The notes beneath the pieces were generated by a model, which was not told the DNA's origin, searched no databases, and saw only the letters and a list, made by a program, of their open reading frames with translations. This document shows, one piece after another, positions 99 to 28,280 of a stretch of DNA of 64,000 bases (positions are counted from its first letter, which is position 1; each line of letters starts with the position of its first letter). Position numbers and translations under genes: made by a program. This stretch comes from Vicinamibacterales bacterium (lineage in GTDB: Bacteria; Acidobacteriota; Vicinamibacteria; Vicinamibacterales; UBA2999): contig DATJFF010000009.1 in assembly GCA_035495795.1 (NCBI GenBank), positions 9,394-73,393 of the forward strand, written 5' to 3'.

Positions 99-2369
99 TC
101 AGGCGGCAGCGGCCAGGCCGAGCAGCCGCTCGCCGCCTTCGCTTCGGAACACCGCCACAGCTTCGGCGTGGCGCGCCTGCGCCAGGCGCACGATCTCGCC
201 GTAGCGCGCGTGATGACGCAACGGTGCCAGCCACGGGTCGTGCAGCAGCGTGTGCGGCACGTGGAAACCGCCGTCCACTGCCATCTGGAGCGCGCGTAGC
301 GCCAGTTCGTCGCTGCCGAGCCGGCTGAGGATCAGGCCGTTGGTCATGTAACCCTCGGGGTCCTTCCACATCGAGTGCGCCAACACGTGTTCGGCGAGCG
401 CGCGAGCCTCGCGTGCCTCTCTGAGGCAGGCCACAATCATCTCGCTCCACGCCTTCAGCATCGGGGTCGCGGCTGGGCCGGGCCCTTCCCAGACCGCCAG
501 CGCCTCCTCTCTGCGCCCGGCGCGATACAAGGCCATGCTTCGAGCGTCGGCATCGTGCAGGTCCGGGTCTCGCAGGATGCGCTCGTGATCGCCGAGCGCT
601 GCATAGGTGTTGAGCACGCTGGTCTGAATGTGCGGGTCGAGGCGCCGCGCTTCTTCGTGTGCGGCCACCGAAGCATCCAGCAGCCCGACGTAGCGGCACG
701 CGTGCACGAGTCCGGCAAACAGCTCGGGATCCGTGACGGCTCGCGCGCGGCGAAGCAGGCGCCGCGTGGCGTCCACGCCGCGGCCGGCGTCGCACTCGAG
801 CTGCGCGTAGTACTTGTGGAGCACGGGCAGCTCGGGATTGAGCGCGAGCGCCCGCTCGAAGGCGCGTTCCGCCAGCTCGGCGCCGTCGGCCACATCGAAG
901 TACTTGCCGATTACCCGGTGACACCGGCCGAGCCCGGCCCACGCCGGCGCAAAGCTCGGATCGAGTTCGGTGCAGCGCAGATACACGTCGCGGGCTTCGG
1001 CGAGGCGATCCCAGTCGCGGGCCAGCTCGTTGCCGCGTAAGTAGAGTTCGTAGGCGGCGCCATTCCGCGGCACGTCGAGCGGCGGGGCGGCGGCGCCGCT
1101 GCCGGGCTCGCCGATCGAGCGCGATAGCGAGCGGACGATGCCGCTGGATAGTTCATCCTGTAATGCGAACACATCGTGAAGCGCATGTTGGGAGGCATGC
1201 GACCACAGGACGGTGCCCGCGGGTGTCTCGACCAGCTGCGCGGTTACCCGGAGCTGCGGCCCGGCGCGCAGGATGGTGCCCATCAGCGCGACATCGACAT
1301 CGACGTCGGCAGCCAGCCGCCGCAGGTCGGGCGCTTGCGGATCGAAGCGCGCGGCCGCCGCACTCGACCGCACCAGCAGGTTGCGGGTCCCGGTGAGCGA
1401 CATCGTGATCGCATCGGGCAGGCTGAAGGCCAGGAAGTCGGTGTCAGCGTCGGGCCGCAGGACGCGGAAGGGCAGGGCGATGAACCGCGTCATCGCCCGG
1501 GCTGCGGTCAGAGTCATCTCGCTCGAGTCGCGATCGGTCGTGACGGCTCGTATCTGCTCGGCCATCGCCGCCGCGGACTGGTAGCGGTCGGCGGCGCGCT
1601 TCTGCAGGCCCTTGTGAATGACGCGGTCGAGGCCGGCCACCGCCCCGCCCCCCGCCAGCGCCGGAGGCTGCTCGTGCAGCACGGCATGCAGGACGTCCAC
1701 CATCGTCGCGCCCCCGAACGCCATCTCGCCGGTCAGCATCTCGAAGAGCAGCGCGGCCACGGCGAACAGGTCGGCCCGTCCGTCGAGCACTTCGCCGCGC
1801 GCCTGCTCCGGCGCCATGTAGTTCGGGGTTCCGACGAGTGCGCCGGCCGCAGTCAGTATCGTGCCGGTATGGCCGGTCTCGCGGTCGCTGGCCATCGGTC
1901 GCGCCAGGCCGAAGTCGAGCAGCTTCACCCCGTGCGGAGTGAGGAACAGGTTCGACGGCTTGAGGTCGCGATGGATGAGCCCGCGCGTGTGCAGGGCCTC
2001 GAGCGCCGCGAGGGTCTGTAGCGCGATCGCGGCTGAATCGGCGTTACTGAGCGCCCCGCGGTTCAGGCGGGCGTCGAGCGATTCGCCGGCCAGCAGCTCC
2101 ATCGCGATGAACAGCCCGCCCTCGGTCTCCTCCACCTCGAAGAGCTGGCAGATGTTCGGATGCGAGATGCCCGCCGCCGCTCGGGCTTCGCGCCACAACC
2201 GCTTGCGCGAGGTGTCGTCGCTTTCGCCGCGAATGGTCTTGAGCGCGACCGCACGGTCCAGGCGCTCGTCGTGGGCCGCGTAGACAACGCCCATCCCGCC
2301 TTCGCCGATCTTGCGCTCGATCCGGTAGCGCCCGATCCGATCGGGAACTGGTGGCGCCGGGAAGGACAT
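99..2369 (-). CDS. Ser/Thr protein kinase with C-terminal helical-repeat (TPR-like) region
   Basis: 756-aa ORF. Hanks-type motifs read directly: GEGGMGVVY glycine loop, AVALK lysine, HRDLKPSNLF catalytic loop, DFGLAR, PNYMAPE. The C-terminal half is helical-repeat-like. ATG at 2369-2367, only 6 nt after the stop of the upstream molybdoenzyme gene. Confidence 0.9.
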   Translation of the reverse strand: MSFPAPPVPDRIGRYRIERKIGEGGMGVVYAAHDERLDRAVALKTIRGESDDTSRKRLWREARAAAGISHPNICQLFEVEETEGGLFIAMELLAGESLDARLNRGALSNADSAAIALQTLAALEALHTRGLIHRDLKPSNLFLTPHGVKLLDFGLARPMASDRETGHTGTILTAAGALVGTPNYMAPEQARGEVLDGRADLFAVAALLFEMLTGEMAFGGATMVDVLHAVLHEQPPALAGGGAVAGLDRVIHKGLQKRAADRYQSAAAMAEQIRAVTTDRDSSEMTLTAARAMTRFIALPFRVLRPDADTDFLAFSLPDAITMSLTGTRNLLVRSSAAAARFDPQAPDLRRLAADVDVDVALMGTILRAGPQLRVTAQLVETPAGTVLWSHASQHALHDVFALQDELSSGIVRSLSRSIGEPGSGAAAPPLDVPRNGAAYELYLRGNELARDWDRLAEARDVYLRCTELDPSFAPAWAGLGRCHRVIGKYFDVADGAELAERAFERALALNPELPVLHKYYAQLECDAGRGVDATRRLLRRARAVTDPELFAGLVHACRYVGLLDASVAAHEEARRLDPHIQTSVLNTYAALGDHERILRDPDLHDADARSMALYRAGRREEALAVWEGPGPAATPMLKAWSEMIVACLREAREARALAEHVLAHSMWKDPEGYMTNGLILSRLGSDELALRALQMAVDGGFHVPHTLLHDPWLAPLRHHARYGEIVRLAQARHAEAVAVFRSEGGERLLGLAAAA

Positions 2370-2375
2370 CAGCTA

Positions 2376-4781
2376 TCACTCATTGGACTGGGCTGCGCCG
2401 AGGGCCGCGAGCACCCTGGCTGGAGTGAGCGGGACGCGGCGCAACCTCACTCCAGTGGCGTCGAACACGGCGTTGGCAACGGCGGCCAGCATCGGCTTGC
2501 AGATCGTCTCGCCAGCGCCGTAGTGCGGCAGGTCGGGCCGGTTCGGGTCGGGATCGCCATTGACCTGGACGATGTCGATCCGTTCCGGCACGTCGGCGTG
2601 GGTCAGGGTGGGCGAGGTCACCCAGTCCACGGTCGTCATCTTCTGGCCGTCGAACCTCGCCTCTTCGTGCAGCGCGCGGCTGAGCGCGTGGAGCAGCCCA
2701 CCCTCGAGCGTGCGCGTCAGCGCCTCGGGGTTGATGACCAGCCCGCAATCGTGGGCGCAGACGATTCGCTTCACCCAGACGCGGCCGGTCTTGCGGTTCA
2801 CTTCGACCTCGACGATCTCGGCGACGACGGTCTGACTGCGATAGGCGTAGGCGGCGCCGCGGCCGGTGAGGATCTCGCCGCTCGCGCGCGGGCCCGGTGC
2901 CGGGCGGGGTTGCCAGCCGAACTTCTCGGCTGCCGCCTTGATGCAGGCGATCGATCTGGCGCGCTTGAAACCGCTGTCGTCGCCCGTGCCGGCTTCGATC
3001 AACTTCAGCCGGAACGCAATCGGGTCCGCCTTGGCCGCGGCCGCGAGCTCGTCGATGAAGCTCTCCGACGCGAACGTGACCTGCGGGCCATCGGGATCGC
3101 GCAGGTTGCCGGTCCTGAGCGGCGTCTCCCACACCAGCGGCAGCGGAATCACGCTGCCGGCCATGCGGCGGTTCGGCACCGCATACATGTCGGAGGGATA
3201 CGACGCGCGTCCGGCCGCCGGCTCCTGTCTCCGTTGTCCCGTGAGCTGCGCGATCAACACCGTGTCGTGCTCGTTGTAGCCGAGGTGATTGTGGTCGGCG
3301 GCCTTGAGGTCGTAATCGAGGGCGACAACGGCCCCCTGCGCGTCGAGTGCGCCGCGCATCTTCGCGGCATAGGCCGGGCCCTTGGTGTCCCATGCGGTTT
3401 CTTCCTGCCGCATCCACTGCACTCGTACCGGCCGGTTCAGCTCCTTCGCCAGGAATGCCGCCTCAAACCCGGCATCGTCGGCGGCGGTGCGCCCGTAGGC
3501 CTGTGGCCCCTGCATCCACACCACGCGCACGCGATCGCGCGGCATACCGAGGAAGCGGGCAACGCCGGACCGCAGCCCGTAGGACTTCATGTCGTTCGAG
3601 TAGATGGTCAGCTGATCGTTCGACGGATCTGCCAGGGCGTGCGCGGGACCGAACGCGGTGTGCCCCTGGAACGGTACGTCGTATTCGGCTTCGACCACTG
3701 ACGCTGCCTTCGCGAACCCGGTCTCGACGTTGCCGACCACAACCGGACGGCCGGTCGAAGACGCCGCCGTGCTGCGCATGTACTTGAAGAGCTCGTCCGA
3801 CGGCGGAAACGCCGGAGTCGCCGGCAGCTTCCAGTTCACCTTGAGCTGTCGCGCCGCCAGCACCGCCTGCTCCTCGCGCTCGAACACGACCGCAACATAG
3901 TTGCCTTTCGTGACCACGCGCACGAATCCAGGGCGGCCGGTGACCGACGACTCGTCGACGCTGACCAGCGTCGCGCCGGCCACAGGCGGACGCACATTGC
4001 GAGCGTGGACCATACCCGGCACCTTCACGTCCACAGCCCACTTCTGCGTGCCGTCCACCTTTGGCGGGATGTCGTAGCGCTGCGGCGACTGCCCGACGTT
4101 TTTCATCTGCTGCACCGGCTTGAGCGGCGCCTGGCCGGTGGTGTCGTCGATGCTCTTGCCGGTCAGCGTGACGTTGAACTTCCTGCCGCCGATCAGTTCC
4201 CCGTAGGTGACGCTCTTCGCCGGCGTGCCCTGGCCGCCGCCGGCCGAGACGACGCCGTCGCTGACGGTGAGCGCGGAGACGGGTGCGCCGAGCCGCTCGG
4301 CAGCCATGTTCAACAGCACCCGGCGCGCTTCCGCCGCGACCCGACGCATCGGGTAGCCGTCGGTCTGGAGTGCGTCCGATCCGCCGGAGCCGCCCTGATC
4401 CACGGTGATGTCCGTGTTCCCCATCACGCACGTGGTCTTGTCGAACGCGATGTCGAGCTCGTCGGACATGATCTGGCGGAACGCAGTGCCGGTGCCTTGT
4501 CCGAGATCGGTCTTGCCGACGAAGAACGTGGCGGTGTTGTCGGGGCGGATGACGATCCACGAGTCGAGCTGATGGAAATCGGGATCGGGATACGGGCCAG
4601 AGCCCTGCGATGCCCGATCCAGGAACGCCTCGACGCCGTCGACCGAAATTGCCGCGACCGAGGCGACGAGAATCCCGGAGGTCTTGAGGAAGTCGCGCCG
4701 TGCCACTTGCCCCGCCGAAGCCGTCCTGGCACGTTGGCGGGCTGGTCTCGCCGAAGCCGTTTTCCTTCGAAGGCGGATCAT
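2376..4781 (-). CDS. Xanthine dehydrogenase-family molybdopterin-binding subunit (IorB / aldehyde dehydrogenase large-subunit type), Tat-exported
   Basis: The ORF track extends to 5351. The product most likely starts at the internal ATG 4781-4779 (MIRLRRK...), which forms an ATGA overlap with the stop of the 2Fe-2S gene. Twin-arginine signal ARRDFLKTSG. 801 aa, with length and sequence typical of IorB-like Moco subunits. Confidence 0.85.
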   Translation of the reverse strand: MIRLRRKTASARPARQRARTASAGQVARRDFLKTSGILVASVAAISVDGVEAFLDRASQGSGPYPDPDFHQLDSWIVIRPDNTATFFVGKTDLGQGTGTAFRQIMSDELDIAFDKTTCVMGNTDITVDQGGSGGSDALQTDGYPMRRVAAEARRVLLNMAAERLGAPVSALTVSDGVVSAGGGQGTPAKSVTYGELIGGRKFNVTLTGKSIDDTTGQAPLKPVQQMKNVGQSPQRYDIPPKVDGTQKWAVDVKVPGMVHARNVRPPVAGATLVSVDESSVTGRPGFVRVVTKGNYVAVVFEREEQAVLAARQLKVNWKLPATPAFPPSDELFKYMRSTAASSTGRPVVVGNVETGFAKAASVVEAEYDVPFQGHTAFGPAHALADPSNDQLTIYSNDMKSYGLRSGVARFLGMPRDRVRVVWMQGPQAYGRTAADDAGFEAAFLAKELNRPVRVQWMRQEETAWDTKGPAYAAKMRGALDAQGAVVALDYDLKAADHNHLGYNEHDTVLIAQLTGQRRQEPAAGRASYPSDMYAVPNRRMAGSVIPLPLVWETPLRTGNLRDPDGPQVTFASESFIDELAAAAKADPIAFRLKLIEAGTGDDSGFKRARSIACIKAAAEKFGWQPRPAPGPRASGEILTGRGAAYAYRSQTVVAEIVEVEVNRKTGRVWVKRIVCAHDCGLVINPEALTRTLEGGLLHALSRALHEEARFDGQKMTTVDWVTSPTLTHADVPERIDIVQVNGDPDPNRPDLPHYGAGETICKPMLAAVANAVFDATGVRLRRVPLTPARVLAALGAAQSNE

Positions 4782-23428: not shown

Positions 23429-25099
23429 TTAGCGGGTGGCCCCGCGCACTGCGAGCGCCGCTTCGAGCGCCTCCGGGCTGACGGGCTTCACGAGATGCTG
23501 GTCGAATCCGGCCGCGCGCGACGCGTCGATATCGGCCTGGCTGCCGTAACCGGACACGGCGAGGATGAGCGCCCCGGACGTCTCCGGCCGCGAGCGAAGG
23601 ATCGCGACCAGCTCGCGCCCGCTCATGTCGGGCAATCCGATGTCCAGCAGCATCGCATCGGGGTGGAACTGGGCGGCCGCGGTCAGCGCCGACCCCGCGT
23701 CGTAGCTGACCTGGGCCTCGTGCCCGTGAAGCTCCAGCAACATGCGCAGCGTTTCCGCGGCATCGACGTTGTCTTCGACGATCAGGACGCGGCGGCTCGG
23801 GCTCGCCTCGAGACGGGGCCGATCCGGAGCCGCGGCCGGCTCGTGCTCCGATGAGCACGGCAAGCGCATCTCGAACTCGGATCCCAGACCGGGGCCCGAG
23901 CTGCGCGCCAGTACCTGCCCGCCGTGGAGTTCGATCAGCCGCTTGACCAGGGCGAGGCCGATCCCGAGGCCGCCCTGGGTGCGGTGCAGCGAGTGATCCC
24001 CCTGGGTGAAGGGGTCGAACACGCGCGGCAGCAGCTCGGGGTCGATTCCCTGGCCGCTGTCACGCACCACGAGCGTCGCATCGCTGCCGTGGCGCTCCAG
24101 CTCGATGCCGATCGTGCCGCCCGGCTCCATGTACTTCGAGGCGTTGTTGAGCAGGTTCGCCACCGCCTGGGCGAGACGCTCGAGATCCGCATCGACGAAG
24201 AGCGGCTCGGGCCACTGCCGCCGTTCGACGCGATGATGGCGGGAGGCGATCAGCGGCGCGCTCATCTCGAGTGCGCGATCCACGGCCTCTTCCAGCCGCA
24301 TCGGCCGTCGTTGCAGCACGATCTTCCCGCGGGATATCCGCGAGAGATCGAGCAGGTCATCGACCAGCCGGCGCAGGTGCTCGACCTGCCGTTCGATCAC
24401 CGACTGGGCCCAGATGCGCGTCGCGGGTTCGAGCTCGTCCTGGCGCATCACCTCGAGGGCGTTGCGAATCGGGGCGAGCGGGTTGCGGAGCTCGTGGGCG
24501 AGGAGCGCGAGAAACTCATCCTTGGCGCGATCGGCGTCGTCGAGCTCCTGCATCCGGTGGCGCAGCTCGAGCTCGAGCACACCGCATTCGTCGATCTTGC
24601 TCCTCAACCGGTCGTTGGTCTGGGCCAGCTCACGGTTGCGCTCGCGGACGCGCAACTCGAGCTGTTCGCGCAATTTCGACAGGCGCTGCTCGGCGTTGCG
24701 GAGCTCCCGCAAGTCCTCGATCGCGAGCAGTACTAACACCTCGTCATTGTTCCGGACGAGGTCGGGCATCAAGCGGGCTTCGATCGCACTCTCGCGTGGG
24801 CGAAGCGTTACCAGAAATGACGTGCGTTCGTAGCGCAAACACCGCAGCCACTGTCCAAAGGCCTGCCCGTCCTGCGTAGACAGGAGGGCAATGAGCGGCA
24901 GTCGCGGTACGGCGACGATCTCTTCTCCGAGCAGCTCGACGGCGGCGTTGTTGGCGTTGAGGATTGCGCCATTCAACGACAGGATGAGGTAAGGGAACGG
25001 AGCCCGATTCAGCAGCTCGAACGCGAACTCGAGCAGCTCCGGCTTACGGTGGCCCGTTGCAACCTCGGGCCTGCGGTTAGGGAAGGCCGCGTCGAACAT
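23429..25099 (-). CDS. Hybrid sensor histidine kinase / response regulator
   Basis: 556 aa. PAS-like N-terminus and coiled coil. H-box FLALLAHELRNPLAPI. N box NLLNNASKY. G boxes DSGQGI and GGLGIGL. C-terminal receiver with LLDIGLPDMSG. Lies 24 nt downstream of the CheB-CheR gene. Confidence 0.9.
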   Translation of the reverse strand: MFDAAFPNRRPEVATGHRKPELLEFAFELLNRAPFPYLILSLNGAILNANNAAVELLGEEIVAVPRLPLIALLSTQDGQAFGQWLRCLRYERTSFLVTLRPRESAIEARLMPDLVRNNDEVLVLLAIEDLRELRNAEQRLSKLREQLELRVRERNRELAQTNDRLRSKIDECGVLELELRHRMQELDDADRAKDEFLALLAHELRNPLAPIRNALEVMRQDELEPATRIWAQSVIERQVEHLRRLVDDLLDLSRISRGKIVLQRRPMRLEEAVDRALEMSAPLIASRHHRVERRQWPEPLFVDADLERLAQAVANLLNNASKYMEPGGTIGIELERHGSDATLVVRDSGQGIDPELLPRVFDPFTQGDHSLHRTQGGLGIGLALVKRLIELHGGQVLARSSGPGLGSEFEMRLPCSSEHEPAAAPDRPRLEASPSRRVLIVEDNVDAAETLRMLLELHGHEAQVSYDAGSALTAAAQFHPDAMLLDIGLPDMSGRELVAILRSRPETSGALILAVSGYGSQADIDASRAAGFDQHLVKPVSPEALEAALAVRGATR

Positions 25100-25123
25100 T
25101 TGCCTGGCCGCGCAGGGGCAGCA

Positions 25124-28036
<2,913 letters not shown>

Positions 28037-28057
28037 CGGTTCCGGTTCACCCCGGCC

Positions 28058-28068
28058 GGGGGGGGGGG
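28058..28068 (-). repeat. Homopolymer tract, G11 on the plus strand (C11 on the coding strand of the CheB-CheR gene)
   Basis: Read directly: ccgg ccggggggggggg ttgttcat. It lies between an SD-preceded ATG (28076-28074) and the long ORF. Confidence 0.95.
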
Positions 28069-28280
28069 TTGTTCATGACGCCTCCGCCCCGAGCGTATCG
28101 CTCGAGGGCTTGTCGATTGCACCGGATCGTACACGGAAAATCATGCGACCAGACGTGGTGGCAATCGGTGTTCGAGCCGTCCTCTTGCATCCGGTCCTGG
28201 CCACTGCATCCGAGGACGAGGCCGCTGAACCGGCCGCGGACCGCGCCCTGAGCTGATGGGCTGGCCGCGCGTGCCACCGG

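Follow-up and report, generated by a model that had tools for sequence, protein, structure and literature searches.

An 11-cytosine tract between the probable start codon and the reading frame of a CheB-CheR-PAS gene that carries other lesions in close soil relatives

Why does an ATG with a well-placed Shine-Dalgarno (SD) sequence stand out of frame with the large signalling gene that it precedes, separated from it by a long run of a single base? The question is raised by a locus on the minus strand of a 64-kb stretch of DNA (hereafter the window) from a Vicinamibacterales MAG (Acidobacteriota) that was assembled from a soil metagenome; the sequence is a population consensus, with no isolate behind it. 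The gene (25124-28036, minus strand) is deposited as HTM29855.1, a protein of 970 aa whose annotated start is the TTG at 28036, as found by exact look-up; the same look-up returned no database record for the versions starting at the GTG or at ATG 27979, or for a repaired version of 983 aa. Its product contains CheB (residues 22-197; Pfam CheB_methylest, E = 3e-52), CheR_N (223-272; 6e-12), CheR (286-476; 3e-52) and PAS_10 (743-848; 1.5e-25), and the presence of all four in one polypeptide places it among the chemotaxis-family CheB/CheR fusions (KEGG-style two-component class), an architecture common to thousands of homologues.

Downstream lies a hybrid histidine kinase with PAS, HisKA, HATPase_c and receiver domains (23429-25099, minus strand), which is intact in relatives, and upstream are cysNC and cysD. 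An earlier reading, made from the sequence alone, had put the fusion gene at the head of an operon with this kinase; the gene order fits, and the two probably share one operon. In two contigs of a closely related population (L085 and L086) the kinase is called 10 codons longer, with a 4-nt overlap with the CheB-CheR-PAS stop (translational coupling). The window differs from both by a small indel at 25099-25127, and the first ATG of its kinase is 24 nt past that stop.

The start region reads, on the minus strand, GGGGCGGAGG-CGTC-ATG-AAC-AA, then 11 C (28068-28058; plus-strand G11) and finally GGCCGGGGTGAACCGGAACCGTTG. The SD core GGAGG (28081-28085) is 4 nt 5′ of the ATG (28076-28074). The tract begins with the third base of codon 3, and its remaining bases would encode Pro-Pro-Pro. 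With 11 C, the ATG frame is a nine-codon ORF, MNNPPPRPG (28047-28076), which ends at TGA 28049-28047, 10 nt before the TTG (28034-28036). The frame of the long ORF, which is +1 relative to the ATG frame, is open from a TGA (28075-28073) overlapping the ATG; its in-frame candidate starts are TTG 28036, GTG 28021 and ATG 27979. An in-frame tract would have 10 or 13 C, and the assembled version is one base too long (or two too short): when one C is removed (or two are added), the ATG joins the ORF and reads MNNPPPGRGEPEPLGAQPVQ.... All of the earlier statements about the sequence itself hold, namely the position of the SD and the ATG, the products of the 11-C and 10-C versions, and the TTG as the first in-frame start of the 970-aa ORF.

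That an 11-mer tract is unexpected here, as had also been proposed, is borne out by counting. C11 is the sole homopolymer longer than 6 across the 64-kb window, where 0.02 are expected in dinucleotide-preserving shuffles and about 2e-4 by extrapolating the run-length decay of the window itself, and it falls exactly inside the 40 nt that separate the ATG from the first start in the frame of the ORF. Moreover, GGAGG-N3-9-ATG is rarer than expected in the window (7 occurrences vs. 13.6 in shuffles), four of the six other occurrences stand at plausible gene starts, and about half of the window's genes have no clear SD. The SD-ATG-C11 arrangement is not due to chance. Homopolymers are strongly avoided window-wide: G/C runs of 6 number only two (C6 and G6, at 1648 and 47750) and those of 7-10 are absent, against the dozens predicted from base composition alone.

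Immediately upstream, the leader contains an imperfect palindrome, CCCTCGAGCG-ATA-CGCTCGGGG (28087-28108, minus strand), which abuts the SD and might serve as an operator or form an RNA hairpin. Folding of the whole leader gives no significant energy (z-score -0.73), and an Rfam scan and a promoter/terminator scan returned nothing significant. A 76-aa ORF in the ATG frame (28277-28047) was considered as coding and rejected, as no upstream frame is conserved; an upstream-open frame in the relative L088 was set aside on the same ground as evidence that the "intergenic" DNA codes. The SD-ATG spacers of the window and L088 are offset by a 1-nt indel, and this shows the DNA upstream of the ATG to be non-coding.

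The most informative comparison for the start codon is with L088, a JGI soil contig of about 93% nucleotide identity to the window that was found with a codon-degenerate pattern. There the region reads GGAGG-CGCTC-ATG AAC GAA CCC GGA CCC ACC AAC CGG GGC GAA CCG GAA CAG CCG GGC GCC CAG ..., so that the SD is kept with a spacer of 5 nt and the ATG is conserved and in frame: GGAGGcgctcATG is followed in frame by the gene, translating to MNEPGPTNRGEPEQPGAQPAQVEQPASVPLMVVGVGASAGG, and the N-terminus from this ATG is MNEPGPTNRGEPEQPGAQP...MVVGVGASAGG. L088 has no homopolymer and carries CCCGGACCCACC in place of C11. The window's TTG and GTG are CCG and GCG in L088, which is left with no alternative start before the CheB domain. 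Measured across the tract, the window lacks 2 nt relative to L088, a difference that matches the frame defect exactly. The leader is more conserved than the coding region, with one position differing in the ~60 nt upstream of the ATG.

The earlier reading had held that orthologues lacking an equivalent N-terminal extension would speak against it; aligning the N-termini shows that L088 has one (MNEPGPTNRGEPEQP... vs. MNNPPPGRGEPEP... in the repaired window protein). The GVGASAGG motif begins at position 35 in the repaired window protein, 33 in L088 and 22 from the TTG start, and at 26-41 in the 14 nearest full-length homologues, many of which begin "MT..PP..". Family-wide, the disordered tail before this motif is variable (about 1 to 108 residues; median motif position 40). 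A weaker counter-indication comes from L081, a 77%-identical relative that has an in-frame TTG at the homologous codon behind GGGAGG, an SD that the window lacks. Because L088 keeps the SD and an in-frame ATG without the TTG, the GTG or the homopolymer, we consider it very probable, from this sequence comparison, that the gene's authentic start is the ATG, the tract being specific to the window lineage and the TTG annotation a workaround. The N-terminus of HTM29855.1 is then probably wrong as deposited, and the gene should carry a frameshift-at-homopolymer flag with its start at ATG 28076.

The gene is broken differently in each close lineage sampled. In a population 98% identical to the window, a 388-bp segment corresponding to window positions 27736-28123 (minus strand) is missing between 5-bp direct repeats GATCC (28128-28124 and 27740-27736). 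The segment is absent in all contigs of this population (L083, L085, L086 and L087, from four JGI samples), which also includes further JGI and ENA proteins (P0244, P0252); at least six contigs from at least four samples carry the deletion. The deletion takes out the leader, the SD, the ATG, the tract and roughly 99 codons from the 5′ end of the gene, among them those of the GASAGG motif with the catalytic serine, and removes the first third of the CheB domain. We considered the gap as an assembly artefact and rejected this, given the identical junction in at least four separately assembled samples and in the ENA and JGI proteins. For these deletion alleles, gene callers make up a start (MQEDGSNTDCHHVWSHDF...) from formerly non-coding DNA.

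Further damage is found in the same population. In the CheR motif region, GGG (27076-27078, minus strand) is GG in L083, L085 and L086, a 1-nt deletion; L087 has instead a change of the adjacent conserved Cys of the invariant GCSTGEE to Arg. The remnant shows pN/pS of about 0.7-2.2 (e.g., 14 non-synonymous to 4 synonymous), as under neutral evolution, against 0.15-0.34 for the neighbouring kinase and FAD-oxidase genes. The remnant in this population is a true pseudogene.

The other two lineages have lesions of their own. L088 carries a +1 insertion in the CheB domain (L088 ~1005; window ~27576), and it also has an extra C in a C-run of the APS-kinase region of cysNC (L088 ~1975; window ~28604), a 1-nt indel that probably reflects faulty assembly. 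Two SRA-run assemblies of the 77%-identical relative (L081 and L082) share an identical -1 deletion between the CheR and PAS parts (at ~3363-3372, CTCAACCTG -> CTCACCTG), which splits CheB-CheR from the PAS part. L081 also encodes a stand-alone CheB-like gene (149-1177, minus strand), divergent from the CheB-CheR fusion, where the window has cysNC upstream. The locus is a small, clean case of parallel inactivation, with four different lesions in four closely related soil lineages and the neighbouring genes intact.

Selection on the window's own branch gives a different picture from that of the deletion alleles. With L088 as outgroup, 388 codons show 7 synonymous and 4 non-synonymous changes on this branch (dN/dS ~0.19), which indicates purifying selection (binomial P = 0.0076 against neutrality), and the window ORF carries no second lesion. 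By these measures the deletion alleles of the sister population rank as decayed pseudogenes and the window allele does not. Given this purifying selection and the lack of a second lesion, the gene must have been functional in the window lineage until very recently, which leaves the frameshift as recent, tolerated or artefactual. In comparisons of the window with its relatives, dN/dS is 0.22-0.34 for the gene vs. 0.15-0.19, a mild elevation that alone is not decisive.

How, then, did the ATG come to be separated from its gene? We favour, with middling confidence, a real and recent slipped-strand allele at the authentic start of a gene that has been repeatedly inactivated in this clade, with no dedicated, conserved switch. 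An interrupted C-rich stretch, coding for a proline-rich and poorly conserved N-terminal tail, would have become pure poly-C in the window lineage, and a pure run of C10-13 is a hot spot for replication slippage. Under this reading the 11-C length would be real, perhaps as the majority form in a population of mixed tract length, and ribosomes starting at the ATG of this allele would terminate after nine codons. Some protein might still be made, either by reinitiation at TTG 28036, 10 nt past the stop of the short ORF, at the cost of no more than 13 residues of the tail, or by tRNA-Pro slipping +1 on CCC-C in about 1% of passages, which would yield exactly the 10-C protein. Selection on the gene in the clade is best read as weak or fluctuating. 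The locus would show a hypermutable tract born from an interrupted proline-coding stretch and, if mixed tract lengths prove true, would make a rare candidate case of heterogeneity driven by slippage among Acidobacteria, for which we know of no description of phase variation.

Searches for further alleles bear on the same point. Within the protein and DNA collections searched we found no second tract-bearing allele: a protein search with the N-terminus only gave no relative closer than 66%, a close-homologue profile search of genome contigs gave relatives of at most 51% identity among the matches listed and nothing on the tract, and a 22-mer common to the window and L083 had no match in the metagenome collection scanned. 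What is new here is the corrected start, the recent origin of the tract and the parallel decay in sister lineages; a frameshift at a 5′ homopolymer is a known kind of event.

Two alternatives to the recent slippage allele accept the ATG as the start and differ on what the tract is. The organism may have 10 (or 13) C and a gene that is intact from the ATG, in which case the extra base is a homopolymer-calling artefact and the TTG annotation its by-product; we regard this as possible, if on the unlikely side. Purifying selection on the window branch in an otherwise intact ORF is also the pattern expected of an intact gene with a miscounted tract, and the only lesion falls at the hardest-to-count sequence in 64 kb. 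Homopolymers of 10 or more remain a known problem for consensus calling, and long homopolymers are rare in bacteria (PMC9262707); this weakness, together with the indel in L088 cysNC, which is most simply an error and shows that such indels occur in related metagenome contigs, also counts against the reading that we favour. Published indel errors at homopolymers (e.g., PMC9262707) resemble our case in that a 1-base difference in a run of at least 10 splits or truncates a gene call, but they are normally accompanied by other frameshifted genes in the same assembly. No other frameshifted gene is evident in the 64-kb window, which argues against a generally error-prone assembly. Furthermore, majority-rule short-read assembly usually yields the dominant tract length, and with genuine lesions in every close lineage, some of them in several independent assemblies, a real lesion in the window would be unexceptional. 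The other alternative is a stronger form of what the earlier reading named, beside a sequencing or assembly error, as a phase-variation-like ON/OFF mechanism: a poly-C kept by selection, so that the CheB-CheR-PAS/hybrid-kinase pathway would flip at high frequency between an on state (10 or 13 C) and an off state (11 or 12 C). The part of that interpretation that stands is that the SD-ATG is the real start and that tract length alone separates it from the ORF, as L088 indicates; the evolved switch itself is unsupported, and we think it improbable. In its favour, the 5′-terminal position of the tract in the ORF makes a shift a clean on/off event, C11 exceeds the >8 threshold above which C/G runs in Bordetella are over-represented and polymorphic (PMC1891110), a signalling gene, bvgS, provides a poly-C frameshift precedent (cited in PMC1891110), and the gene is seemingly dispensable or costly in the clade given its repeated losses, a setting in which switching could pay. 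However, the tract is not conserved, since L088 at 93% identity has the interrupted sequence and the 98%-identical population has lost the region; no length polymorphism was observed; a single long tract in 64 kb gives no sign of a locus repertoire; and the sister lineages lose the gene irreversibly rather than switching it. The locus thus has a tract of unstable length at a place where expression would be altered, as contingency loci do, without the conservation in relatives. A variant of this view, that a newly arisen poly-C acts as a reversible off/on switch and has been caught at its origin in a clade that is losing the pathway irreversibly by deletion and frameshifts, strikes us as equally doubtful; if true, selection against the pathway would have been answered in one lineage by a reversible solution.

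Two further alternatives remain. In one of them the TTG (or GTG) is native and the SD-ATG heads a regulatory uORF, MNNPPPRPG, in which polyproline stalling or termination would govern initiation at the TTG, 10 nt further on. In favour of this, the NCBI annotation starts at the TTG, the homologous codon of L081 is an in-frame TTG with a strong GGGAGG before it, a tail of 22 residues fits the family range, and about half of the window genes do without a clear SD in any case. Against this, the two-ORF arrangement is not conserved at 93% identity, where the ATG is in frame and both TTG and GTG are absent; the window has no counterpart of the SD that precedes the L081 TTG; and neither the Rfam nor the fold analyses revealed a leader element. 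We judge a native TTG very improbable. In the other, 11 C is the normal state, and the full-length protein would come from programmed +1 frameshifting, with tRNA-Pro slipping on CCC-C, or from slippage during transcription. The offset between the ATG frame and the ORF is exactly +1, and at the slip site the ribosome would be slowed by three prolines in a row; consecutive prolines cause EF-P-dependent stalling. For E. coli, an unprogrammed +1 frameshift of tRNA-Pro at CCC-C near the start codon has been reported at about 1% (Gamper et al.; PMC4519876), in the same context close to the start and in the direction needed to reach the ORF; there, however, it is an error process and no gene-expression device, and for Acidobacteria it is an extrapolation. 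Known unprogrammed rates of about 1% or less, moreover, speak against it as the normal route to the protein. Programmed sites are conserved, yet the nearest undeleted relative, L088, has a single continuous frame and no slippery run. The window also lacks a stimulatory element: the SD is too distant, 13-19 nt 5′ of the slip site, the codon that follows (CGG) does not count as rare at 67% GC, and there is no significant structure (z-score -0.73). With neither a conserved two-frame arrangement nor a stimulator, programmed recoding seems to us scarcely credible.

The recent slippage allele that we favour has its nearest likeness in Bordetella, where C/G runs longer than 8 occur beyond chance, are mostly polymorphic between species and are lineage-specific (Gogol et al. 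2007; PMC1891110). Orthologues there often have interrupted tracts, as in kdpD (C10 vs. C2AC5), and in bvgS a poly-C (C6) frameshift switches a signalling gene (PMC1891110). Like the window tract, the Bordetella tracts are lineage-specific and interrupted in orthologues, and some lie in coding regions for signal transduction, where 1 nt shifts the frame. They differ in that length polymorphism was measured directly, from strain to strain and inside cultures, whereas the present case offers a single tract-bearing allele, and one such tract in 64 kb, from a free-living acidobacterium of soil that is known from a MAG alone. The poly-G/C loci of Neisseria, Haemophilus and Campylobacter are alike in having a G/C run of at least 9 a few codons past the start, where one unit toggles translation. 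In classical contingency loci, tracts are conserved across strains, number tens per genome, mostly affect surface structures and belong to host-adapted bacteria; none of these features was found here.

Long G/C runs also occur elsewhere near genes of this family. The 697 kb of fetched loci hold only 7 G/C runs of at least 8, and 6 of the 7 lie in non-coding DNA ahead of CheB-CheR fusion genes, at a distance of 27-230 nt, in three unrelated genomes (L008 3715-3770; L010 3871-3878; L016 3735-3742). As analogues of a general switch these runs were rejected on account of that position, outside the coding sequence and 27-230 nt before the starts. In an Anaeromyxobacteraceae MAG they form a cluster (G8, G8, G10, C9) that resembles a G-quadruplex or hairpin element, and the G/C runs upstream of CheB-CheR genes may be a coincidence or a tendency of these promoters.
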